From: an uncultured Gammaproteobacteria bacterium
GTDB lineage: Bacteria > Pseudomonadota > Gammaproteobacteria > Burkholderiales > Sulfuricellaceae
Length of the DNA stretch: 64,000 bases
Assembly: GCA_963741495.1 (NCBI GenBank)
Contig: CAVUID010000018.1
Coordinates: 110,542-174,541, forward strand
Direction: 5' to 3'
A model generated the notes under the pieces. That model was not told the DNA's origin and did not search any database. It saw only the letters and a program-made list of their open reading frames with translations. The position numbers and the translations under genes are program-made. Numbering within the stretch: position 1 is the stretch's first letter; every line of letters starts with the position of its first letter. Positions 8,834 through 47,935 of the stretch are shown here, one piece after another.

Positions 8834-9946
8834 CAAACCACATCCTCTTTGTAGCGTCCGTAACTGTAATACGCCGCGCAGGCGCCTTCCGATGAAACCA
8901 TGCACGAGCCGATCGGATTTTCCGGCGTGCAGACGCCGCCGAACAGTTTGCAATCCAGTGGTTTCTTTACTCCGCGGATAATCGCGCTGCATTCGCAGGC
9001 CGGATTGTCGGCCACCTGCTGATAAGTCAGCCTGAAGCGCTTTTCCGCATCGAAATCCGCAAAACGCGGCCGGATGGCGAGGCCACTGTGCGGCACCACG
9101 CCCAGGCCGCGCCACTCGAATGCCTCGCGCACCTCGAAAACCTCTGCCACCAGCCGCTGTGCCTTGAGATTCCCCTCACGCGACACGGCGCGGGTGAATT
9201 CATTTTCCACCTCGGCGCGTCCCGTGTTCAATTGCCGCACCAGCATCAGGATGGCCTGCATCACGTCGAGCGGCTCGAATCCGGCAATCACCACCGGCAG
9301 GTGATATTGCGCGGCGAAGGGCTCGTAGGGCTGACTGCCGATCACGGTGGAAACATGCGCGGGGCCGATCACGCCATCTACATCGGGCTTCTCCGCTGCT
9401 CATGATGGCGGAAATCGCGGCCGGGGTGAGGACGTGGTTGGAGATCACGGAAAAATTTTTCAGCCCCTGCGCTTCGGCCTGCAGGATGGCCACGGCGGTG
9501 GGCGGCGTGGTGGTCTCGAAGCCGATGGCGAAAAACACCACTTCACGGTCCGGATGGTCCTGGGCGATTTTCAGGGCATCGGCGCTGGAGTAGATCATGC
9601 GGATGTCTGCGCCACCTGCCTTGGCCTTGAGCAGGCTCATGCCGCCCGAGCCCGGCACGCGCAGCATGTCGCCGTAGGTGCAGAGGATCACGCCGGGGAT
9701 GCGGGTCAACTGGATGGCGTAATCCAGCCGCCCAATGGGGAGCACGCATACCGGGCAGCCCGGGCCATGGATCAGGTTGACATTGGGCGGCAGCAGGTTC
9801 TGCACGCCATAGCGGTAGACTGCGTGGGTGTGGCCGCCGCAGAACTCCATCAGGCCATAGCGGCGTTCCGGTTGCACCTCGCGCGCAATGTCCGCTGCCA
9901 GCTTGCGCGCCAGAGCGCCGTCGCGGAATTCGTCGATGTATTTCAT
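8833..9946 (-). pseudogene. hypD: hypD interrupted by a single frameshift
   Basis: The N-terminal 186 aa (MKYIDEFRD...CGGHTHA...GPGCPVCV...NHVLTPAAISAIMSSGE) are in the frame of ORF 9200..9946. The C-terminal part (PDVDGVIGPAHVSTVIGS...CECSAIIRG...CTPENPIGSCMVSSEGACAAYY) is in the frame of ORF 8833..9372. The two frames join near 9380-9392. Confidence 0.8.
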
Positions 9947-10179
9947 TCGGGTGAGGCGTCGAGCGCCGCGCTGATTTCTGCAAACAGGGCCAGGGTTTTG
10001 GCGGCTTCTTCCGGGTCGAGCCGGTTGAGGGCGTAGCCCACATGAACGATCACATAATCGCCCACAGCCACGCCGTCCACCAGCGCCAGGGAAATGGTCT
10101 TGCGCACGCCGCCCACATCCACGACAGCCATGTCGTGTTCAAGAACTTCCGCCACCAGGGCGGGGATTGCCAGACACAT
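9943..10179 (-). CDS. hypC: hydrogenase assembly chaperone HypC/HupF
   Basis: Canonical MCLAIPA N-terminus at ATG 10179. 78 aa. ATGA overlap with the hypD start. Confidence 0.9.
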   Translation of the reverse strand: MCLAIPALVAEVLEHDMAVVDVGGVRKTISLALVDGVAVGDYVIVHVGYALNRLDPEEAAKTLALFAEISAALDASPE

Positions 10180-12536
10180 TATTCCAGTCCTCTGTTGATT
10201 GCCACCCACGCCTGCCCGAGGCTCAGGCCGCCATCGTTGGGCGGTACCTGTCGGGCTTCGAGAACGCGTAATCCTGCTTCTGTCAGCGCATCGCGCAAAT
10301 TCCGGCTGAGGATGGCATTGAGAAAACAGCCGCCACCCAATGCCACGATTTTAATGCCGCTTTGCTGCGCAGCCTGCATCACCCATTTCGTCAGCCCGTG
10401 CGCCAAGGTAGCATGAAACAGCGCCGCGCCGTAGGCAGGGTCGCGAGTGTCAGCCAGTGCGCCGAGCAGGGGAAGAAAATTTAGTGTGCCATCTGTGTTC
10501 AAGGTATAGCCATCGGGCAGCGGCGCAACTGTGCCATGCGTTTCCGCCAGCCCTTCCAGCAGCATGGCCGCCTGGCCTTCGAAGCTGGCCATATTCCTGA
10601 TCCCCAGCAAACCCGCGGCGGCATCGAACAGGCGTCCACAGCTCGACGTGAGTGGCGTATTGACGCCCTTGTCCAGCATCTGGCGTAGCATATCGGCGGC
10701 GGGCAAGGCGAAGCGCTGGCTGATTTCATCGCCCCGGCCCAAGTGCGTGGAGCGCGCTGGCCGCCATGCGCCACGGCTCGCGTGCGGCGCGGTCGCCGCC
10801 CGGCAGTGGCAGGTTTGCCAGATGGCCGAGGCGTTCGCAGCGTCCATTTTCGAGGCGAAGCAGTTCGCCGCCCCAGGCCGAGCCATCGGTGCCCAGACCA
10901 ACGCCATCCAGCGCCAGCCCCAGCGCGGGTTCGTCGCTGCCATGCTCGGCCAGAACGGCGGCGATGTGGGCATGGTGATGCTGTACGGCGATAGCCGGTA
11001 TGCCGCGTTCAGCGGCGAATTCGGTTGCAAAGCGGCTGCTGTGAAAATCCGGATGCAGGTCATGGGCGACGATTTCGGGCCGGATTTCCAGCACGTTCAT
11101 CAGGTGCGCCACCGTTTCTTCCAGCGCCTCGCGGGTCGGAGCGTTGTCGAGATCGCCCAGGTGCTGGGAAATGAATGCTTCGTTGCCGCGCGTCAGGCAT
11201 ATTGTGCTCTTGAACCAGCCGCCGCAGGCCAGCACGGAAGGGCCGGAGCGGGGCAAAAGAATGGCGCGCGGGGTGTAGCCACGGGCGCGGCGGATGAAGT
11301 GGAACGGGGAGTGAAGTGTGAAGTGTGAAGTGTGAAGTGTGGCAGCAGTGGCGTTTCTTACCACCGAGTCGTCGCAGCGCACTACGATATCGCGGTCGTG
11401 CAACACAAAGGCGTCGGCAATGCTGCCCAGCCGCGCCAGCGCTTCGTCGTTGCCAATCACCAGCGGTTCACCGCAGGGGTTGGCGCTGGTCATGACCAGC
11501 AGCAGTTCCTGTGGCTGGTCCAGCCAGGTTGTGCCGGACGGCCTGTTCGCCGCCTCGTGGAATAGCAGGTAATGCAGCGGGGTGTAGGGCAGCATTGCAC
11601 CCAGCCAGGCGATGCCTGGCGCAATGCCGGGTAAAGCTTCATCGCAGCCCGGTTGCTTGCGCAGCAGCACGATGGGGCGCTCGCGTGCTTGCAGCAGGTC
11701 TGTTTCCGCTGCGCTCATGTTCACTATTTTCCCCAGCGACGCCGTATTGGCCGCCATCACTGCAAAGGGCTTTTCCTCGCGCTGCTTGCGCTCGCGCAGT
11801 GTGGCTAACGGCCCCGGCATTGCGCGCATCGCAGACAAGGTGAAAGCCGCCCAGCCCCTTGATGGCGAGGATTTTTCCTGCCTTGAGCATGGCTACGCGT
11901 TGTCGCGATGACATCCGGTGTTTCGATGACCTGCCCGACGGCATCGCGCAGGGAAAGCTGCGGGCCGCACACCGGACAGGCGTTGGGCTCTGCGTGGAAG
12001 CGGCGCGTTTCGGGGTTGCGGTATTCCTGGCTGCATGCCGGACACAGCGGAAAGCTGGCCATGCTGGTGTAAGGGCGGTCGTAGGGCAGGTGGCGGGTGA
12101 TGGTGTAGCGCGGGCCGCAGTCGGTGCAGTTGATGAATGGGTAGCGGTAGCGGCGGTCGGTTGAGTTGAACAGTTCGGTCAGGCAGGCGGGGCAGGTGGC
12201 GGTATCGGGTGCGATGGCGGTGCGGGCAGGGCCGCCTTGACTTTCCTGTATGGAAAAATCCTGAAAAAGGGAGAGCAATATGTTTTCTTTTGCTTCCACC
12301 GACGTAACACGGGCCAAGGGCGGAGCGTCCGATTTCAGGCGGCGGAGCAGGTCGCTGATGGCGTGTTTCTCACCCTGCGCCGTGATTTCCACCCCCTCGC
12401 CATCGTTGCGCACCCAGCCGGCAATGCCGAGTTCCTTTGCTACACGATAAACAAAGGGACGGAAACCAACGCCCTGAACCTGGCCGCGTACGCGAATACT
12501 TGCAGTGACTGGAACAGCGTGGTCGCTACTGTTCAC
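10179..12536 (-). pseudogene. hypF: carbamoyltransferase HypF split over four reading frames (three frameshifts)
   Basis: Frame of ORF 11805..12536: acylphosphatase domain plus 2x CXXC-X18-CXXC zinc fingers. Frame of ORF 11639..11944: VAMLKAGKILAIKGLGGFHLVCDARNAGAV. Frame of ORF 10726..11838: ATLRERKQREEKPFAVM...RARGYTP...AVQHHHAH. Frame of ORF 10179..11063: GRGDEISQRF...LGGGCFLN...VPPNDGGLSLGQ. Junctions lie near 11895-11915, ~11806 and 10731-10742. Confidence 0.8.
11311..11340. repeat. solo tandem heptamer tract (GTGAAGT)x4 inside hypF
   Basis: The plus strand reads gtgaagt gtgaagt gtgaagt gtgaagt gt. It is translated in frame on the minus strand as ...LHTSHFTLHSP... between DDSVVR and RRARGY. 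Confidence 0.9.
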
Positions 12537-22024: not shown

Positions 22025-22447
22025 TCAGTTCTTCAAACAATCGCTCATAAATTTTTTGCGCTCGTCACCCTTGAGCGCTTTGTCGCCGGCTTCCTTGTTG
22101 CATAGTTTCATCTTGTTCTGCTGGGGTGTCTTTGCGCTGGCTGCTTCCGGCTCCTTGCCACTCAGGCAGCCGCTCATGAATTTTTTGCGCTCATCGCCCT
22201 TGAGTGCCTTGTCGCCAGCATCCTTGTTGCACTGCGCCATGCGGTTCTGCTGCGGCGTCTTGTCGCTGGGGGCTTCAGATGCCTTGCCGCTCAGGCAGTC
22301 ACTCATGAAGGCTTTTCGCTCATCCCCCTTGAGATCCTGGGTTTTTGCAGTCGCGTTGCATTCTTTCATTCGTTCCTGCTGTGGACCGGCATAAGCCAGA
22401 GTGCTGGACAAGGCCAGTGCGATGGCGGCAATAATCAGTTTTTTCAT
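22025..22447 (-). CDS. psiF: PsiF-repeat (phosphate-starvation-inducible) protein
   Basis: Signal peptide plus three copies of Q(Q)xRMxxCNxxAxxxxLKGDERKxFMSxCL. Confidence 0.8.
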   Translation of the reverse strand: MKKLIIAAIALALSSTLAYAGPQQERMKECNATAKTQDLKGDERKAFMSDCLSGKASEAPSDKTPQQNRMAQCNKDAGDKALKGDERKKFMSGCLSGKEPEAASAKTPQQNKMKLCNKEAGDKALKGDERKKFMSDCLKN

Positions 22448-26119: not shown

Positions 26120-27250
26120 TTACGGGCCGAAAAACGCCTTGACCTTGTCCATCCACGATTTGGCGCGCGGATTGTGGCGGTCGCCGTCGGCCAGGTTGAG
26201 ATCTTCCAGTTCGCGCAGCAATTCCTTCTGCCGTTCGGTCAGGCTGACTGGCGTTTCCACGATGACATGGCACATCAGGTCGCCGTGGTGCTGGCTGCGC
26301 ACGCCCTTGATGCCCTTGCCGCGCAGGCGGAAGACCTTGCCGCTCTGGGTTTCGGCGGGGATCTTGATCTTGGCGTGGCCGTCCAGGGTGGGGATGTCGA
26401 TTTCTCCGCCCAGCGCGGCAACGGTGAAGCTGATCGGCATTTCGCAGTGCAGGTCGTCGTGGTCGCGCTGGAACACGCCATGCGCCTTGATCTGGATGAC
26501 GACGTAGAGGTCGCCTGGTGGGCCGCCGTTGACGCCGTCCTCGCCTTCGCCGGAGAGGCGGATGCGGTCGCCTTCGTCCACGCCGGATGGAATCTTGACC
26601 ACCAGCGTCTTGTGCTGCTTGACGCGCCCGGAGCCCTGGCAGGTGCCGCAGGGGCTTTGCACCATCTTGCCGCTGCCGTGGCAGCGCGGGCAGGTTTGCT
26701 GGATGGAGAAGAAGCCCTGCTGCATCCTGACCTGGCCGTGGCCGCCGCAGGTGGTGCAGGTGGTCGGCTGGGTGCCGGGCTTGGCGCCGGTGCCATTGCA
26801 GGTGTCGCACTTTTCCATGGTGGGGATGCGGATCTTGGTTTCCGCGCCGCGTGCGGCGTCTTCCAGCGAGATTTCCAGGTTGTAGCGCAGGTCGGCGCCG
26901 CGATAGACGTTGGAACGCCCGCCGCGCCCGCCGCCACCGCCGAAGATGTCGCCGAAGATGTCGCCAAAGGCATCGGCAAATCCGCCCATGCCTGCACCGC
27001 CAGCGCCACCCATGCCGGCCTGCGGGTCCACCCCGGCATGGCCGTACTGGTCGTAAGCGCCGCGCTTGCCGCTGTCCGAGAGTATCTCGTAGGCTTCCTT
27101 GGCTTCCTTGAAGTGTTCTTCCGCCTTGGGATTGTCCGGATTGCGGTCCGGATGGTATTTCATCGCCAGCTTGCGGTAGGCTTTCTTGATCTCATCATCC
27201 GAGGCGTCGCGGTTGACGCCGAGGATTTCGTAATAGTCGCGTTTGCTCAT
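26120..27250 (-). CDS. dnaJ: molecular chaperone DnaJ
   Basis: J-domain [10 protein letters not shown]...HPDRN, a G/F region and 4x CXXCXGXG zinc-finger repeats. Confidence 0.97.
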
Positions 27251-27253
27251 TTT

Positions 27254-27290
27254 GAGTGTGAAGTGTGAAGTGTGAAATGTGAAATGTGGG
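27254..27290. repeat. heptamer-array arm (GTGAARN type), dnaJ-proximal
   Basis: The plus strand reads gagt gtgaagt gtgaagt gtgaaat gtgaaat gtggg. On the transcribed strand this gives CTTCAC repeats ending 7 nt before the dnaJ ATG. Confidence 0.9.
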
Positions 27291-27293
27291 ACG

Positions 27294-27650
27294 TCATTCG
27301 CGTTCCTTTAGCGATTTCATGAGTGCGTGGGTCAGGGCTGAAACTTCATCAATCTTGAGTTGCAGAGTCGAAGTGTCCTGACAGTAGCCGATGTTTAGCG
27401 ACAGTTCCAATTGTGTGTCAAGCTCGGCAAGTGAACCGCTTGCAATCACCAAAAAACGCAGCAAATCTTTGGTGCTCTGCCTTGCTGCACCTTCTGCAAT
27501 ATTGGATGGAACTGAAACTGCAGCTCGACGCATTTGGGAGGAAAGCCCATAGATTTCCTCCCTGGGAAAAGTGGAGGTGAGACGGTAAACCATTTCGACC
27601 AGTTGCATGGCTGATTGCCAGGCACGCAGATCCTTGTGGTTCCGTCTCAC
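27294..27650 (-). CDS. four-helix-bundle protein (23S rRNA intervening-sequence protein family)
   Basis: 118 aa: [46 protein letters not shown]......[21 protein letters not shown]. The GTG start (27650) is itself the last unit of the upstream heptamer arm. Confidence 0.85.
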
Positions 27651-27674
27651 GCTTCACCTTTCACTTTTCACGCT

Positions 27675-27678
<4 letters not shown>
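27646..27678. repeat. heptamer-array arm, dnaK-proximal (inverted relative to 27254-27290)
   Basis: The plus strand reads ctcac gcttcac ctttcac ttttcac gctttac. The array overlaps the dnaK stop codon (27675-27677). Confidence 0.9.
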
Positions 27679-30588: not shown

Positions 30589-31650
30589 TCAGACGGCGAG
30601 GTCAACCTGTTGTATGGTGCCGGCGGCGCCGTCCTCGCCAAGATAGATGCCGGTGGAGCGGATCTGGCCGTCGAGGCGGTTGCTGGCGTCCTTGATGCTG
30701 AATTCAGTCGAGGCATTGCCAAGGTACAGCGCACCCACACCGACTGCCTTCAGTGTCACGAACTGGTCATTGCCCTGGGCGTCCTTGCTCCATACCTTGA
30801 GTAGCGAAAATACGGCATCGTTCTCGTCGATCCACCGGTTGCCGTCCTGATCATAAGCCGCAAGCTCACTGAAACCGTTGCCGCTGGCCGGGCCGAACAG
30901 CTCGCTGCCGTTGTTGATCTTGCCATCCTGGTTCTTGTCGAGGGCGAGAAAGCCACTGCCGGGGACAACAAAGGAAATCTGCTCGGCGCTGCCGTCCGCA
31001 TCGAGGTCGAAGCTGAACCTGGCGGCAGTCAATTGAGCAGCGCTGCCACTGAAGTTGATAACCAGAGGGTCTTTAGCCTGTTGCGCTGCATCGCCCAGGC
31101 GCAGGCTGACATCGCTTTGTTCCAGATACTCGCGGCTCATGGAGAGTTGCAGATCGAAGGTGATTTCCCTGCCATCGGCGGTTCTGACGATGCCCCGGGC
31201 ATGAAAACGAGTTTGTTCGGCTTCGTAATGGGTTTCATGGCGCTCATATTCGACGCCATAACCGGCAGACTGCGCAGCAACCTGTTTCCCGGCGGTCTTG
31301 GGGTCCTGCAGGGGCGCCTGCGACGGTGCGCTGGTGACCTGCAAGTCTTTCATCGACAGGATGCGGATTTTCCTGCCGGTCATGGCTTCTACCATGCTGA
31401 TGAGCAATTGCATGCGCGGGTCATTGTCCACGGCTTCCTGGGTATCCGAAACGGCATCGGATTTTTGTGCCGCCTGGCCCCGTTCGGAAATGGAAACCCG
31501 GTCCACGGCGGGGCGATTGGCAGCCCTGCCGCGCCCCTCGAAATCCGGGCGTTCCGTTCCAGCCCAGGCGCGCAATGATTCGCGCACCGAGTGTTTTTCC
31601 ACGCTGCTATGCTGGCTGCTTAAAACGATGTCTGAACTGGCGATTTTCAT
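30589..31650 (-). CDS. conserved-looking hypothetical protein with EF-hand-like Asp-rich motifs
   Basis: 353 aa from ATG 31650 (AAGGGA SD). The C-terminal half has DLDADGSAE, DKNQDGKINNGSELFG and YDQDGNRWIDENDAVF motifs (DxDxDG calcium-binding-like). No signal peptide is seen. Confidence 0.6.
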   Translation of the reverse strand: MKIASSDIVLSSQHSSVEKHSVRESLRAWAGTERPDFEGRGRAANRPAVDRVSISERGQAAQKSDAVSDTQEAVDNDPRMQLLISMVEAMTGRKIRILSMKDLQVTSAPSQAPLQDPKTAGKQVAAQSAGYGVEYERHETHYEAEQTRFHARGIVRTADGREITFDLQLSMSREYLEQSDVSLRLGDAAQQAKDPLVINFSGSAAQLTAARFSFDLDADGSAEQISFVVPGSGFLALDKNQDGKINNGSELFGPASGNGFSELAAYDQDGNRWIDENDAVFSLLKVWSKDAQGNDQFVTLKAVGVGALYLGNASTEFSIKDASNRLDGQIRSTGIYLGEDGAAGTIQQVDLAV

Positions 31651-31754
31651 GATCAATCCCTTGAAGAAAAATGCAAGTTTCCAGCGTTTTCTTGGGATTG
31701 TTGGGTGGGGAAGCTTGCCTTTTATTTAGCGGCAGCGTGGGCCGGAACTTTAAC

Positions 31755-31894
31755 GTGAAACAGTTTTGTGAAGCGTGAAGTCACTCGCTGCGCTTTGTTT
31801 GTGAAGCGTGAAATGTAAAACACTCCCCGGAGTCTGCTCTTACATTTCACACTTCACAGCAAGGGCGCAGCCCAAGCGGCTTCACATTTCACTC
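31755..31894. repeat. compound (nested) heptamer-array palindromic element
   Basis: gtgaagc gtgaagt cactcg...gtgaagc gtgaaat gtaaaac - loop - ttacatttcac acttcac ...gcggcttcac atttcac. It shares the GTGAAGY-CACTCG module with the 47021 copy. Confidence 0.85.
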
Positions 31895-31921: not shown

Positions 31922-33013
31922 TTAATCCTTTGCCCCCATGGCAAGCGCGCGGGCCTTGCTTTCCTGGACGGTGGCGGGGTCGGGCGTCTCCTGCAGCCAG
32001 CCTTGCAGGTGGTTTAGGGTGATGTCGCACAAGGCGCGGATCCAGTCGTCACGCTCGTTGAGGCAGGGGATGTAATGAAATTCCTGACCGCCGGCATTGA
32101 GGAAATCCGCCTTGCATTCCATGGCGATTTCTTCCAGGGTTTCAAGGCAGTCAGCGGCAAAGCCGGGGCAGATTACGTCCACCCTTTTGACCCCTTTTTT
32201 GCCCAGCATTTGCAGGGTGGGGGCCGTGTAGGGCTGGATCCATTCGGCGCGACCGAAGCGCGACTGAAATGTGACCAGGAATCGATCGGGGGTGAGGCCC
32301 AGCGCTTCAGCCAGCAGACGCCCGGTTTTATGGCATTCGCAGTGATAGGGGTCGCCCTTGTCCAGCGTGTATCGGGGCACGCCGTGAAAGCTCATGATCA
32401 GCTGGTCCGGGCGGCCATGCTGCTGCCAGTGGTCGCGCACGCTGTTGGCCAGTGCGTCTATATAACCGGGGTGGTCGTGATAATGTTTTACTGTCCGCAG
32501 TTCCGGCATGTTGCGGCTCTCCAGCAGCGTCTGGAACACCGCATCCAGCGCCGATGCCGTGCTGCTCGCAGCGTATTGCGGATAAAGTGGCAAGGCGAGA
32601 ATGCGTTCACAGCCCTGTTCCCGCAGCGACGCGATGGCCGAGGGCACGGACGGATTGCCATAACGCATGGCGAATTCGATCGCCAGTGGGGCCTTGGTTC
32701 GTTCCCCAAGGTAGCCTTGCAGCATCTTCGCCTGTTTGCGGGTGTGGGCGAACAGCGGGGAGCCTTCGCGGGTCCAGATCTGGGCGTACTTCTGCGCCGA
32801 TTTGCCGGGGCGGGTGTTGAGAATGATGCCGTTAAGAATCAGCCACCACAGCAGACGTGGAATTTCGACCACGCGCGGGTCGCTCAGAAACTGCTTGAGA
32901 TAGGGGCGCAGCGCCTGCCGGGTGGGTGCGTCCGGGGTGCCGAGATTGATCAGCAGGATGCCGGTTTTGTCTGGAATGCCGTGGGCGTGGGGGGGCTCTG
33001 GAAGATAGGGCAT
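31922..33013 (-). CDS. hemH: ferrochelatase
   Basis: 363 aa: [11 protein letters not shown]...PLYPQY...SFHG(V)P...GDPY family pattern. Confidence 0.93.
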
Positions 33014-38659: not shown

Positions 38660-39790
38660 GTGCCGCAACACCAGCCAGCCATACTCGTGCTCGCAGATGG
38701 AACAGTGTTTCGCGGTATTTCCATTGGCGCGACAGGCCATTCCGTAGGCGAAGTAGTATTCAATACCGCCCTGACCGGCTACCAGGAAATTCTTAGCGAT
38801 CCCTCTTACTGCCGTCAGATTGTTACCCTGACTTACCCCCATATCGGCAACACCGGCGCCAATCCTGAAGATGCCGAGTCCGGCGGGATTCATGCTGCCG
38901 GACTGGTGATTCGTGACCTGCCTCTACTGTCCAGCAACTGGCGTGAAACGGAAACTCTGCCGCAATACCTTCAACGCAATAATGTCGTTGCGATTGCCGA
39001 TATCGATACCCGCAAGTTGACGCGAATTCTGCGCGACAAGGGCGCCCAGAGCGGTTGTCTGATGGCCGGAGAGGTGGATGAGGCCAAGGCGCTGGAGCTG
39101 GCGCGTGGCTTTGCCGGCCTGGCTGGCATGGATCTCGCCAAGGTGGTGACGCGCGCCCAGAGTGAGGTCTGGCTTGAAGGCGAGTGGAAGCTTGAAGGCG
39201 GATTTGGCCAGCAGGCTGCGCCTGAATTCCATGTCGTGGCCTACGATTTTGGCGTCAAGCGCAATATTTTGCGCATGCTCGCAGAACGCGGCTGCAAGGT
39301 GACCGTGCTGCCGGCGCAAACCCCGGTTGAAGAGGTGTTCAAGCTCAATCCGGATGGCGTGTTTTTGTCCAACGGCCCGGGTGATCCGGAGCCATGCGAT
39401 TACGCCATCAATGCGATCCAGAAAGTGCTGGAGAAGAAAATTCCCACTTTTGGCATCTGTCTCGGTCACCAGTTGCTGGCGCTGGCCTCTGGCGCAAAAA
39501 CCATGAAAATGAAATTCGGCCATCATGGCGCCAATCATCCGGTGCAGGATCTGGATAGCGGACGGGTGATGATTACCAGCCAGAACCACGGTTTTGCAGT
39601 GGACCCGGCCACACTGCCAGCCAATTTGCGCGTAACACATAAATCGCTGTTTGATGGCAGTAATCAGGGCATTGCCCGTACCGATGTGCCTGCATTCAGC
39701 TTCCAGGGCCACCCTGAAGCAAGCCCGGGACCACATGATGTGGCTTATCTGTTTGACCGCTTCATAAAATTAATGAGAGAAAGATCGTGA
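38660..39790 (+). CDS. carA: carbamoyl-phosphate synthase small (glutaminase) subunit
   Basis: GTG start after GGAGAG: [14 protein letters not shown]...GICLGHQLL...HGANHPV...QGHPEA. Confidence 0.93.
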
Positions 39791-39871
39791 AGGGTGAAAT
39801 GTGAAATGTGAATTTACGCCTGTCAAAATGGCGGCGATTTCACCCTTCACTCTTCACCCTTCACCCTTCAC
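39787..39871. repeat. heptamer-array palindromic element in the carA|carB spacer
   Basis: gtgaagg gtgaaat gtgaaat gtgaatt - 23 nt - tttcacc cttcact cttcacc cttcacc cttcac. It overlaps the carA stop and ends 6 nt before the carB ATG. Confidence 0.9.
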
Positions 39872-39877
39872 GCATTC

Positions 39878-42800
39878 ATGCCAAAACGTACCGACATAAA
39901 ATCCATCCTCATCATCGGCGCTGGCCCGATCGTCATCGGCCAGGCCTGTGAATTCGATTACTCCGGCGCCCAGGCGTGCAAGGCCCTGCGCGAGGAGGGT
40001 TACCGCGTCATTCTGGTGAACTCCAACCCTGCCACCATCATGACCGATCCGGGCATGGCAGATGCCACCTACATCGAGCCGATTACCTGGCAGGTGGTGG
40101 AAAAAATCATCGAGAAAGAGCGCCCTGACGTGCTGCTGCCGACCATGGGCGGTCAGACTGCGCTGAATTGCGCGCTGGATCTGGCCAAGCACGGTGTGCT
40201 GGAAAAGTACTCGGTAGAGATGATTGGTGCGACCCGCGAGGCGATCGACAAGGCAGAGGATCGGGAGAAATTCAAGAAGGCGATGGAGAAAATCGGCCTT
40301 GCCTGCCCGCGCGCCGCGATTGCCCACAGCCTGGAAGAAGCTTTCCAGGTGCAGGCCATGGTGGGCTATCCCACCATTATCCGCCCGTCCTTTACCATGG
40401 GCGGTTCCGGCGGCGGCATTGCCTACAACAAGGAAGAATTTGTCGCCATCTGCGAGCGTGGTCTGGAGGCGTCTCCTACCCGTGAGCTGCTGATCGAGGA
40501 ATCGGTGATCGGCTGGAAAGAATACGAAATGGAGGTGGTGCGGGACAAGAAGGACAACTGCATCATCATCTGCTCGATCGAGAACTTCGACGCCATGGGC
40601 GTGCACACCGGCGACTCCATCACTGTTGCGCCGGCCCAGACCCTGACCGACCGCGAATACCAGATCATGCGCAATGCCTCGCTGGCAGTGCTGCGCGAAA
40701 TCGGCGTGGAAACTGGCGGCTCCAACGTGCAGTTCGGCATCAACCCGAAAAATGGCCAGATGGTGGTGATCGAGATGAATCCGCGCGTGTCGCGTTCCTC
40801 GGCGCTGGCATCCAAGGCGACCGGATTCCCTATCGCCAAGGTGGCGGCCAAACTGGCAATCGGTTACACCTTGGACGAGTTGCAGAACGAAATTACTGGT
40901 GGTGCCACGCCAGCCTCGTTCGAGCCCAGCATCGATTACGTGGTGACCAAGATACCTCGTTTTGCCTTCGAAAAATTCCCCCAGGCCAATGATCGCCTGA
41001 CCACCCAGATGAAATCGGTGGGTGAGGTGATGGCGATGGGACGTACTTTCCAGGAGTCATTGCAGAAGGCCCTGCGCGGCCTTGAAACCGGCAATGACGG
41101 GCTGGATGAAAAGACCACGGATACCGACGTACTGGAAACCGAACTGGGCGAACCCGGCCCGGAACGTATCTGGTATATCGCAGATGCCATGCGCTGCGGC
41201 ATGACGCAGGAGCAGATTTACCAGCTGACCCATGTCGACCCCTGGTTCCTGGCACAAATGAAGGATCTGGTCGAGCAGGAACAGGCGCTCTCCGGGCGCA
41301 AGCTGGTCGATCTTTCCCGCGATGAGATGCGGCGCCTCAAGCGCAGCGGTTTCTCGGACCGTCGCCTTGGCAAACTGCTGGGCGTGACCCAACATGAAGT
41401 GCGCAGTGCCCGCCATGCGCTGAGCGTGCGCCCGGTATACAAGCGCGTGGATACCTGCGCTGCAGAATTTTCCACGCATACCGCTTACATGTATTCGAGT
41501 TACGAGGAAGAGTGCGAGTCCGTGCCCACGGGCAATAAAAAGATCATGGTGCTGGGCGGTGGTCCCAACCGGATCGGTCAGGGCATCGAATTCGACTACT
41601 GCTGCGTGCATGCGGCACTGGCGATGCGCGAAGATGGCTATGAGACCATCATGGTCAACTGCAATCCGGAAACCGTTTCCACCGACTATGACACTTCCGA
41701 TCGCCTGTATTTCGAGCCATTGACGCTGGAAGACGTGCTGGAAATCGTTCACGTCGAGAAGCCTTACGGCGTGATCGTGCAGTATGGCGGCCAGACACCG
41801 CTCAAGCTGGCGCGCGACCTGGAGGCCAACGGGGTGCCCATCATCGGCACCACGCCGGACATGATCGACGCCGCCGAGGATCGCGAACGTTTCCAGAAGC
41901 TGTTGCACGACCTCAAGCTCAAACAGCCGCCCAACCGCACGGCACGGGCGCCGGAGGCTGCCATCAAGGCAGCCGAAGAGATCGGCTACCCTCTGGTGGT
42001 GCGCCCTTCCTACGTGCTCGGTGGCCGTGCCATGGAGATCGTGCACCAGCAGTCCGATCTTGAGCGCTACATGCGCGAGGCGGTCAAGGTTTCCAACGAT
42101 TCTCCGGTGCTACTGGACCGTTTCCTCAATGATGCCACCGAAGTGGACGTGGATGCCATTTGCGACGGTACCGACGTGCTGATCGGCGGCATCATGGAGC
42201 ACATTGAGGAAGCCGGCGTGCATTCCGGCGATTCGGCATGTTCCCTGCCGCCCTACAGCCTGTCGCAGGAGATCCAGGATGAGCTGCGGCGCCAGACCGT
42301 CGCCATGGCCAAGGGCCTGAATGTGGTTGGGTTGATGAACGTCCAGTTCGCCATTCAGGGCCAGACGGTCTATGTGCTGGAAGTCAATCCACGTGCTTCG
42401 CGTACCGTGCCCTTCGTTTCCAAGGCCACAGGCGTGCCGCTGGCCAAAGTCGCTGCGCGCTGCATGGTCGGCCAGACTCTGAAGCAGCAGGGTGTGACGC
42501 GCGAAGTGATTCCGCCTTTCTACTCGGTGAAGGAAGCAGTATTCCCCTTCATCAAGTTTCCCGGTGTGGACCCGATTCTCGGTCCGGAAATGAAATCCAC
42601 CGGCGAAGTCATGGGCGTGGGCAATACCTTTGCGGAAGCCTTCCTGAAATCACAAATGGCCGCAAGTGTGAAGCTGCCCTCTGGTGGCAAGGCGCTGATC
42701 AGCGTCAAGGGTTCGGATAAGGAAAAGATGGTGGATATTGCCCGCAATCTGTCCGCTCTTGGCTTTGGTCTGTACGCCACGCGCGGAACGGCCGCGGCGA

Positions 42801-47020: not shown

Positions 47021-47112
47021 GTGAAGGGTGAAGCCACTCGGCATTGCCTCGTTGTGAAAAGTGAAAGGTAAAAGACATCTTCACTCTTCACCCTTCACTC
47101 TTCACCCTTCAC
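47021..47112. repeat. heptamer-array palindromic element in the ftsH|folP spacer
   Basis: gtgaagg gtgaagc cactcg...gtgaaaa gtgaaag gtaaaag acatc ttcactc ttcaccc ttcactc ttcaccc ttcac. It ends 4 nt before the folP ATG. Confidence 0.9.
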
Positions 47113-47116
47113 GAAC

Positions 47117-47935
47117 ATGTTTCATTGCGGTCGCTTTACCCTCTCCCTGGATCGCCCTCTCGTCATGGGCATCGTCAATATCACGCCCGACTCCTTTTCG
47201 GACGGTGGTCGTTTTTATTCCCCGGAATTCGCTATCGAACATGCCAGGCAACTCATCGAACATGGGGCCGACCTGCTGGATATTGGTGGTGAATCGACCC
47301 GCCCTGGCGCGCAGCCGGTTGGTATAGAGGAAGAGCTGGAGCGCATCTTGCCTGTGCTCGATGCTTTAGGCGATTGCGGTGTGCCGCTTTCGGTGGATAC
47401 ATTAAAACCCGAAGTCATGCATGCGGCGATTCAGGCCGGTGCCGACATGATCAATGATGTAAATGCATTGCGCGCCGAGGGCGCCCTGAAGGTGGTGGCG
47501 GATTCCAGCGTCGCCGTTTGCCTGATGCACATGCAGGGCGAACCGCGCATGATGCAGCAGAGTCCCCGGTATCAGGATGTAGTCGCTGAAGTGAAAGCCT
47601 TTCTGAATGAACGCATCGCAGTGGCGGGGCGGGCCGGAATTCAGCGTAACCGCATAGTGATTGATCCCGGTTTCGGTTTTGGCAAGACGCTGGAGCATAA
47701 TCTATCCCTGCTTCGGCAGCTGGATGCTTTCACCGACCTTGGTGTGCCGCTGCTGGCCGGTCTGTCGCGCAAATCGATGCTGGGCGTATTGACCGGTTTG
47801 CCGGTAGAAGAAAGAATGGTGCCCAGTGTTGCCGCAGCCGTGATTGCGGCCATGAAGGGTGCAAAAATTTTGCGGGTGCATGATGTGAAAGAAACCAGAC
47901 AAGCACTGCAGATCGTCAGTGCATTGGGAGAGTGA
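47117..47935 (+). CDS. folP: dihydropteroate synthase
   Basis: [15 protein letters not shown]...[11 protein letters not shown]...NDV...GFGFGKT. Confidence 0.95.

Follow-up and report, generated by a model that had tools for sequence, protein, structure and literature searches.

Heptanucleotide tandem repeats are a described class of bacterial DNA. Short tandemly repeated repetitive (STRR) sequences with a heptanucleotide unit were reported in Calothrix in 1990 (Mazel 1990, as cited in PMC4692102), and heptanucleotide tandem repeats, convergent intergenic pairs among them, are known from Xanthomonas and Nostoc (PMC4692102), Beggiatoaceae (PMC4679880) and Geobacter (PMC2700814). As cited in PMC4679880 and PMC4692102, Mrazek (2007) found that heptamers outnumber all other long simple repeats in many prokaryotes, and proposed polymerase slippage. 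Here we analyzed a 64,000-nt stretch of DNA from an uncultured bacterium of the Sulfuricellaceae (contig CAVUID010000018.1, positions 110,542 to 174,541; hereafter the window). Arrays of the heptamer GTGAARN and their reverse complements recur in it, with a hairpin in the carA|carB spacer as the type copy, and we relate these arrays to genes of the PF05635 protein family. The arrays had been picked out by a first-pass annotation of the same DNA.

The Geobacter metallireducens genome paper describes families of four or five tandem heptamers (PMC2700814). Xanthomonas campestris carries 186 GGGAATC arrays, 70 of them in convergent pairs, whose locations are conserved and whose length is variable (Rehm et al. 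2015, PMC4692102). MacGregor (2015) described TAACTGA repeats that overlap upstream stop codons, place stops in three frames and stand ahead of starts that lack a ribosome-binding site (PMC4679880), and a Nostoc preprint reported that heptamer repeats affect the expression of recF and recO and postulated a binding partner (bioRxiv 10.1101/2022.06.06.494920). A second described system is the S23p-type intervening sequence (IVS) of Coxiella, Leptospira and Brucella, in which terminal inverted repeats, able to pair into a long stem, enclose a PF05635 open reading frame (ORF). These sequences sit in helices 9, 25 or 45 of 23S rRNA, are sporadically distributed and regarded as parasitic, and have their stem cut by RNase III (PMC4990558). 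In the Coxiella IVS, tandem GACAGAT heptamers stand in the terminal stem ahead of the S23p ORF, RNase III cuts the stem at the first repeat, and the number of units varies among strains (PMC4990558).

The hairpin between carA and carB

The carA|carB element belongs to the known heptanucleotide tandem repeat class, in its paired, hairpin-forming variety, with GTGAARN as the unit in this member of the Sulfuricellaceae. The type copy is composed as follows:

39787..39814, plus strand: 5' arm, four heptamers GTGAAGG GTGAAAT GTGAAAT GTGAATT
39815..39837, plus strand: loop of 23 nt, TACGCCTGTCAAAATGGCGGCGA, which adds a small extra stem at the tip
39838..39871, plus strand: 3' arm, TTTCACC CTTCACT CTTCACC CTTCACC CTTCAC (five NNTTCAC units)

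The carA stop codon (TGA, 39788-39790) falls within unit 1 of the 5' arm, and the carB ATG at 39878 lies 6 nt past the last unit, with no Shine-Dalgarno sequence between that unit and the ATG. A direct sequence check read the hairpin at 39787-39871 letter for letter as first described, and the positions that the first-pass annotation had given for the arms, the loop and the stop and start codons all agree with the sequence. The fold check that it had proposed came out in favor of a strong hairpin, the carA|carB spacer being predicted to form 30 pairs at -41.9 kcal/mol (z = -7.6). Within the element, no promoter or intrinsic terminator was found above chance. With a loop of only 23 nt, the type copy encloses no ORF, and hence no PF05635 gene.

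A gene-bearing copy between dnaK and dnaJ

A full-length copy of the element was found in the dnaK|dnaJ spacer. The first-pass annotation had listed the two arms of this copy and had overlooked the gene enclosed between them. Its parts are:

27644..27678, minus strand: 5' arm, GTAAAGC GTGAAAA GTGAAAG GTGAAGC GTGAGAC
27294..27650, minus strand: PF05635 four-helix-bundle gene, 118 aa (PF05635 E = 1.5e-36; TIGR02436)
27254..27290, minus strand: 3' arm, TTCAC units, a few nt past the ORF stop

Unit 1 of the 5' arm contains the dnaK stop codon (TAA, 27675-27677), unit 5 contains the GTG with which the enclosed ORF starts (27648-27650), and the dnaJ ATG (27248-27250) follows 7 nt past the last unit. 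The arms, 355 nt apart, flank the ORF on the dnaK/dnaJ strand, and in the predicted minimum-free-energy fold they pair across it.

The profiles matched by the window ORF are named 23S rRNA intervening-sequence protein (PF05635) and four helix bundle protein (TIGR02436). The match to PF22296 (bAvd) was weak, and the PHROG family "Avd protein of DGR" was matched at 2.9e-7. Among solved structures XCC0516 of Xanthomonas campestris, described in the literature as a toroidal homopentamer, comes closest (PDB 2GSC, E = 1.5e-35, five chains). An exact look-up of the window protein returned no identical record. Compared with the copy in a related genome (L208, see below), the ORF has a pN/pS of 0.095, and by this measure the gene is under purifying selection. 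It is the only gene seen inside copies of the element, and the 118-aa helical bundle has no nuclease or recombinase fold.

Comparison with described repeats

The first-pass annotation had named the STRR as its nearest known concept, and this was the right comparison. Like the STRR, the window arrays are tandem 7-nt units, with period 7 favored, in few copies per array. STRR arrays are dispersed in large numbers over a genome and mostly intergenic; of the five array loci in the 64-kb window, four are intergenic and one is coding. They are unlike the STRR in the unit GTGAARN, the betaproteobacterial host, the pairing of arrays into hairpins and the one pair that encloses a PF05635 gene. The same annotation had regarded the repeat as unnamed. 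This was correct insofar as Rfam 15 gave no match at gathering score across the whole window, relaxed thresholds returning only generic hairpin (miRNA precursor) noise, but heptanucleotide tandem repeats as such were already a described class.

The GGGAATC repeats of Xanthomonas and GGGGAYT repeats of Nostoc resemble the window arrays in lying close behind the 5' neighbor gene, in forming convergent pairs able to fold into stem-loops, and in occupying conserved places, chaperone operons (groES|groEL) included, where length and sequence vary among relatives (PMC4692102). Their units are G-rich and have been studied as quadruplex formers (PMC4692102), whereas GTGAARN cannot form G-quadruplexes. 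The TAACTGA repeats of Beggiatoaceae, Cyanobacteria and Bacteroidetes also share much with the window arrays: intergenic arrays of 2-6 copies that overlap the upstream stop, three-frame stops in one orientation with occasional in-frame genic copies in the other, and a position just ahead of starts without a ribosome-binding site (PMC4679880). They have a different unit, however, and are nearly always direct (169 direct sets versus one indirect; PMC4679880), whereas the arrays studied here are as a rule inverted pairs.

The dnaK|dnaJ copy has the terminal stem and the PF05635 ORF of an S23p IVS. The IVS is located in 23S rRNA (PMC4990558), whereas the window copies occupy spacers of protein-coding genes instead. 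No rRNA was found in the window, and every copy lies between or inside protein-coding genes. Since the rRNA location that defines an IVS is lacking in all window copies, we say by analogy that the gene-bearing form would work like an S23p-type IVS, not that it is one.

The window ORF product is homologous to Avd of diversity-generating retroelements. Avd is a pentameric four-helix bundle and, by analogy with the XCC0516 structure, the window protein would be one too. Neither a reverse transcriptase nor a template/variable repeat stands beside the window ORF, whose neighbors within 40 nt are dnaK and dnaJ, so the copy lacks the parts of such a retroelement.

Repetitive extragenic palindromic (REP) sequences and the bacterial interspersed mosaic elements (BIMEs) built from them are unique imperfect palindromes of 20-40 nt, and copies flank, in inverted orientation, the gene for a REP-associated tyrosine transposase (RAYT), an HUH tyrosine (Y1) enzyme. 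In outline the window family is similar, with short palindromic copies at gene 3' ends and a few copies that flank a small protein gene. Its arms are tandem heptamers and its enclosed gene encodes a four-helix bundle, and inspection, with no direct sequence comparison, showed no apparent similarity to REP sequences. Mycobacterial interspersed repetitive units (MIRUs), of 46-101 bp, lie between operon genes and overlap neighboring stop and start codons. They resemble the window copies in these operon spacers and overlaps, but they are not built from heptamers.

Arrays beside PF05635 genes

We used the PF05635 alignment to collect at least 80 metagenome loci, with gene positions in the fetched loci approximated from long ORFs; the figures that follow hold among the loci listed. 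A period-7 array lay within 250 nt upstream of the PF05635 gene in 37 of 71 evaluable loci and within 250 nt downstream in 46 of 76. Arrays stood on both sides in 26 of 67, and the heptamers of the two sides were reverse complements in 22 of these 26. Beside the gene, array density was 98 per 37.4 kb (2.6 per kb), as against 41 per 133.6 kb (0.31 per kb) farther off, a difference of 8.5-fold. The units vary by locus (GTGAGGN, GTGGTGA, GATTCGT, GTGATGG, GTCAGAT, TGGGAAG and others), and heptamer distance correlates with protein distance (Mantel r = 0.21, p = 4e-4). The 5' arm was purine-rich in 32 of 36 cases, and a GTGA core was present in 42% of 5' arms, with 10% expected. Gene and upstream neighbor were co-oriented in 51 cases versus 8. 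A screen by a few conserved 23S motifs put none of the 80 loci in a 23S rRNA context.

In the reverse direction, one genome per species was scanned for four GTGAANN units, which yielded at least 120 loci from many phyla. PF05635 loci recovered in this way include a Mesorhizobium genome with GTGAATA and ATTCACC on either side of the PF05635 ORF, a Thermodesulfovibrionales metagenome-assembled genome (MAG) whose PF05635 gene is bracketed by GTTAAAT/ATTTAAC, and one locus with reversed polarity. Between distant inverted arrays in the loci scanned, other cargo consisted mostly of ordinary host or phage genes, and only the four-helix-bundle gene recurred.

The association can also be read from published data. 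In X. campestris a four-unit GGGAATC array lies 6 nt past accB (XCC0517), where it takes in part of the XCC0516 start codon (PMC4692102, supplement), and XCC0516, matched here through PDB 2GSC, is the structural archetype of the PF05635 family. Rehm et al. drew no connection between their repeats and this family, and PF05635, S23p and four-helix-bundle proteins go unmentioned in PMC4679880, PMC4692102, PMC2700814 and the Nostoc preprint. On these sequence comparisons the link between heptamer arrays and PF05635 genes is general and reaches beyond the window. It appears to be previously undescribed: we found no description of it in the literature searched, a search that most subscription journals fall outside.

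The PF05635 family is very large, with more than 7,900 relatives below 1e-10 in one search. Contigs that carry close homologues of the window four-helix-bundle protein are mostly about 0.5-3 kb long, which suggests that flanking arrays break short-read assemblies.

Orthologous spacers in relatives

By its CarA and DnaJ proteins the window falls within the Sulfuricellaceae, close to Sulfurimicrobium and Sulfuricella. We compared the spacers with those of related genomes, whose syntenic regions are 83-88% identical to the window in nucleotide sequence overall and 93-97% in the dnaK-dnaJ genes. All four Sulfuricellaceae relatives have a carA|carB hairpin that is arranged alike: unit 1 contains the carA stop, and the carB ATG stands 4-8 nt past the last unit. 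Their unit is GTGAGGN/NCCTCAC, unlike the GTGAARN of the window. Outside this group, Sulfuritortus calidifontis has 2 nt between the two genes, an empty site, and a Burkholderiales MAG has a 91-nt spacer without heptamers. The first-pass annotation had proposed a comparison with relatives for empty sites. Its outcome was mixed: within the Sulfuricellaceae no empty carA|carB site turned up, the relatives have a different heptamer, and the Sulfuritortus site is empty.

The ftsH|folP spacer is occupied in 7 of 7 genomes, the window included. Its units form a GTGAA composite in the window and in a Sulfurimicrobium MAG (L121), are of GTGAGG type in four genomes and ATGAGTN-like in one. The dnaK|dnaJ spacer varies most visibly. 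L208 has GTGAA arms around a four-helix-bundle gene, with dnaK and dnaJ as neighbors as in the window; L206 and L207 have an ORF-less 72-73-nt hairpin of AATGGGG/CCCCATT; Sulfuricella denitrificans skB26 (L209, 5906-6001) has a hairpin of the 8-mers CACAGAGG/CTCTGTGC; and L210 has GTGAGGA-type units. The closest relative, L207 (97% in dnaK and dnaJ), has a wholly different spacer, whereas L208 (93%) shares the gene-bearing form. Thus a spacer stays occupied across related genomes while the repeat unit of both arms changes.

Strong folding is predicted for all occupied spacers, the stems having 23-36 pairs, the energies ranging from -24 to -60 kcal/mol and the z values from -2.4 (ftsH|folP of L212, the weakest) to -11. 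Unit 1 contains or closely follows the stop codon, and the start codon comes 0-8 nt past the last unit (4-8 nt in most spacers), with no Shine-Dalgarno sequence between the last unit and the start in the window or in the spacers shown.

The last seven residues of CarA differ as well: the window protein ends in ..FIKLMRERS (39760-39790), and those of L121, L123, L124 and L125 end in ..FISMMQQKK or similar. With both the CarA tail and the heptamer type different from those of the relatives, the carA|carB junction was apparently remodeled together with the element.

Other copies in the window

Tandem Repeats Finder and our own scan agreed on GTGAARN arrays with their complement at exactly five loci of the window. 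A three-unit pattern allowing at most one mismatch had 17 matches, and none in each of 100 dinucleotide-preserving shuffles, so that the dispersed family of hairpin-forming elements at five loci in 64 kb reported by the first-pass annotation is real. All five loci hold arrays of 4-5 head-to-tail 7-nt units. Four of the five are hairpins in gene spacers, the ORF-less copies having fold z values from -3.6 to -7.7, and one is coding. The loci besides carA|carB and dnaK|dnaJ are:

47021..47112, plus strand: ftsH|folP copy, with two units (47021-47034), a 19-nt interruption (47035-47053), three units (47054-47074), a 5-nt loop and five TTCAC units (47080-47112)
31755..31894, no strand assigned: nested palindrome on the hemH side, with outer two-unit and inner three-unit arms separated by 19-23-nt segments
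11311..11341, minus strand (hypF): solo array of 4.4 GTGAAGT units in the plus-strand reading

The folP ATG, at 47117, lies downstream of the ftsH|folP copy. The nested palindrome at 31755-31894 lies between hemH (31922-33013, minus strand) and the next minus-strand ORF (30589-31656), and its predicted fold of -65 kcal/mol has a z of about -7.5 whichever strand is taken. It is absent from that place in three relatives. In one JGI MAG (L125, 3160-3330) a different palindrome, of the 9-mers ACGGAGAAC, lies downstream of hemH, and such 8-mer and 9-mer hairpins of the same design show that the design is not strictly bound to period 7. A similar 19-nt segment (CACTCG...GTT) is common to the nested copies (47035-47053 and 31782-31800), where it breaks the 5' arm after unit 2.

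The first-pass annotation had stated an orientation of the arms relative to transcription. A palindrome reads GTGAA first on either strand, so the orientation of ORF-less copies carries no information. The solo array that it reported at 11311 exists, but not in an intergenic location: at 11311-11341 it lies in frame within the minus-strand hypF, in the stop-free TTCAC reading, and adds about 12 residues (..ATLHTSHFTLHS..) between the YrdC-like and Kae1-like domains as compared with solved HypF structures. A second linker case was seen in cysS of Sulfuricella denitrificans skB26 (L209, 9669-9695, minus strand), where four in-frame CCTCACC units in stop-free orientation sit between the catalytic domain and the DALR domain. 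Rickettsia palindromic elements, unique sequences of 100-150 bp, insert in frame into protein genes. The hypF and cysS arrays are like them in this respect, but the Rickettsia elements are not heptamer-built.

The hypF gene itself (10179-12536, minus strand) is split over three overlapping frames (12536-11805, 11838-10726 and 11063-10179), and the hypD ORF beside it (9200-9946) matches its Pfam model over the first half only. This state reflects either a decaying hydrogenase-maturation cluster or frameshift errors of the assembly. Tandem Repeats Finder also reported a 129-bp tandem repeat at 22025-22447 (minus strand), an ordinary PsiF-repeat protein with three repeats (E = 2.8e-55) that is unrelated to the heptamers. 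PADLOC gave no matches.

Arrays in diverse genomes and viral contigs

Arrays other than those of the seed family also favored a period of seven. In the at least 120 genome loci, period 7 accounted for 94 arrays, period 8 for 14, period 9 for 10 and period 6 for 4; in at least 120 loci from viral contigs the corresponding numbers were 173, 28, 20 and 16. Arrays of different units are often adjacent or nested. Of 126 cases in the genome loci, 86 have a same-sense ORF of at least 100 aa whose end falls at or within the GTGAA array, compared with 13 of 126 at random positions, and in 29 cases the ORF stop is a TGA of the array.

In viral contigs heptamer arrays stand at many gene junctions (L253 of IMG/VR, 1800-2900, and other viral loci), and nested viral arrays combine outer GTGAAAA/TTTCACA arms with inner AAAGACT/AGTCTCA arms. 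In a Cloacimonadota MAG (L004, 4865-5120), TTCACTG and CTTGTCA arrays adjoin a putative 5S rRNA gene, assigned by eye only, which would place arrays beside structural RNA genes as well.

Several more specific ideas were tried and rejected. Compensation at the RNA level was set aside because the arm mismatches of 23 ORF-bearing elements comprise 14 G.U in the sense RNA versus 21 in the antisense, together with 36 transversions, and lend no support to RNA-specific selection. One heptamer per pentamer subunit does not fit the copy numbers of the unseeded set, in which 27, 15, 7 and 2 arrays have 3, 4, 5 and 6 copies, without a mode at five. Translational coupling bridged by the hairpin is not a general rule, as a start codon right after the 3' arm was found in 13 of 142 cases in diverse genomes and in 9 of 142 at random positions. 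Stop triplets occur in 5' arms at 0.69 versus 0.57 after letter shuffling within the heptamer (p about 0.045). This small excess is mostly base composition, and stop codons were dropped as a selected feature; the GTGA core is the specific signal. Finally, mimicry of a Shine-Dalgarno sequence by the 5' arm was discarded, the enrichment not being robust.

Discussion

In our reading the carA|carB element is an ORF-less member of a family of hairpin inserts whose full form carries a PF05635 gene, and which would be selfish or nearly neutral inserts of operons. We assign this reading a probability of roughly 0.55. The element lodges right behind the last sense codon of its host gene, the first GTGAARN units stop translation in three frames, and the enclosed gene points the same way as the upstream host gene. 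The arms are predicted to be able to pair into a stem of 23-36 bp. Between relatives the PF05635 gene is present or absent, and one site is empty. The element would be co-transcribed with its operon, and its stem is probably an RNase III site at which the operon transcript is cut between both cistrons, as the stem length and, by analogy, the Coxiella IVS data suggest. Its arms may owe their upkeep to processes in the DNA (slippage, arm-to-arm copying or replacement) and not to selection for RNA pairing; that mismatches are without wobble bias is weak negative evidence for this.

A number of observations weigh against this reading. A PF05635 ORF adjoins the array in about 5 of the 120 listed GTGAA-seeded genome loci. 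Arrays far outnumber PF05635 genes, and they may exist independently of the gene, which would merely favor the same sites. None of the 120 listed viral loci (1.06 Mb) has a PF05635 ORF according to a hidden Markov model built from relatives of the window protein, a model that may miss distant members. Neither a target-site duplication nor a clean insertion junction was seen at the compared spacers. The mismatches show no G.U preference in the sense RNA (14 versus 21, with 36 transversions) and do not demonstrate constraint at the RNA level, and the enrichment of stop triplets in 5' arms (0.69 versus 0.57, p about 0.045) is mostly base composition. Lastly, carA|carB is occupied in 5 of 5 Sulfuricellaceae and ftsH|folP in 7 of 7 genomes, which also fits a function for the host.

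Such a function could be that of an intercistronic regulator selected by the host, in which the hairpin sets the relative expression of the two cistrons by protection of the upstream message from 3' exonucleases or by coupled translation, the stem base holding the stop of the first gene close to the start of the second. A regulator of this kind would explain why a hairpin is kept at carA|carB and ftsH|folP whatever the unit, and why, in the window and the spacers shown, unit 1 contains or closely follows the stop and the start comes 0-8 nt past the last unit with no Shine-Dalgarno sequence between. Reporter work in Nostoc suggests that heptamers affect recF and recO expression (bioRxiv 10.1101/2022.06.06.494920), and translational regulation was proposed by MacGregor for TAACTGA (PMC4679880). 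We nevertheless consider this explanation unlikely. A start follows right after the 3' arm in 13 of 142 cases in diverse genomes versus 9 of 142 at random, Sulfuritortus manages on a carA|carB spacer of 2 nt, arrays also stand in frame in hypF and cysS and beside unrelated genes of all kinds, and no wobble-biased compensation was seen.

An explanation that we hold to be equally doubtful, and that is compatible with the favored one, is that the arrays serve as binding arrays for an oligomeric nucleic-acid-binding protein. Each subunit or monomer would take one heptamer, and the candidates would be the ring-shaped PF05635 pentamer or a cold-shock protein, whose binding to an arm would be in competition with formation of the hairpin. 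HutP, which reads triplets spaced 7 nt apart, is a precedent. A strict period 7 fits such binding (94 versus 14 versus 10 arrays in genome loci and 173 versus 28 versus 20 in viral loci for periods 7, 8 and 9, among the loci listed and apart from the seed family), and the GTGA core in 42% of 5' arms versus 10% expected, the co-variation of protein and heptamer (Mantel), the homopentamers of the family and the work of its relative Avd with nucleic acid point in the same direction. The Nostoc workers also postulate a protein partner of heptamer repeats (bioRxiv 10.1101/2022.06.06.494920), and CspB is cited as binding one heptamer per monomer (in PMC4679880). On the other hand, copy number has no mode at five (27, 15, 7, 2), and arrays are abundant without a nearby PF05635 gene.

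Somewhat less probable again is that the arrays are a functionless by-product of mutation. Heptamers would be the most slippage-prone units, template switching in quasi-palindromes would copy arm onto arm, and arrays would persist where they are harmless, that is after stop codons or as stop-free readings in protein linkers. Both in-frame arrays (hypF and cysS) are indeed in the stop-free orientation, copy number decays roughly geometrically, and the arm mismatches have no RNA-specific pattern. Unit number varies among Coxiella strains (PMC4990558), and the heptamer excess in many prokaryotes has been attributed to slippage (as cited in PMC4679880 and PMC4692102). Slippage leaves unexplained, however, how one unit gives way to an unrelated one in both arms among close relatives (GTGAA, AATGGGG, 8-mer), why arrays, as complementary pairs, are 8.5 times denser at one gene family, and why purines prevail in 32 of 36 5' arms.

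The inverted terminal arms, the small size, the dispersed intergenic copies and the presence or absence among genomes seen here would also suit a classical miniature inverted-repeat transposable element, mobilized in trans by the transposase of another genomic locus. We regard this as very improbable. The arms are tandem repeats and not unique terminal inverted repeats, no compared junction shows a target-site duplication, no transposase was found in any copy, and the only enclosed gene encodes a 118-aa helical bundle without a nuclease or recombinase fold. In the study of Rehm et al. such repeats were not associated with insertion sequences (PMC4692102).

A broader reading, tentative and with the odds rather against it, concerns the family as a whole. 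Heptamer arrays and PF05635 proteins might be two halves of one ancient, pan-bacterial element, in which the ring-shaped pentamer recognizes its own arrays and maintains, copies or re-seeds hairpin inserts. Each unit would be one binding site with a GTGA-type core, and inserts would be found at gene ends, in rRNA helix loops and in phage genomes. Its non-autonomous offspring would then be the ORF-less arrays, thousands in number, and Avd would be a recruited relative.

In practical terms, arrays displace the stops and starts that annotation assigns, can lie in frame within enzyme genes and appear to break short-read assemblies (many homologue contigs are about 1 kb long). Heptamer tandem repeats are the commonest long simple repeats in many bacteria, and to our knowledge the only concepts attached to the PF05635 family are "rRNA intervening sequence" and "Avd-like". 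The co-occurrence of the two in spacers of housekeeping operons, across phyla, merges two orphan observations into one testable system. If arrays and proteins are indeed two halves of one element, this would provide a mechanism and a partner for repeats that have been unexplained since 1990, and a function for a protein family that has been unexplained since 1993.

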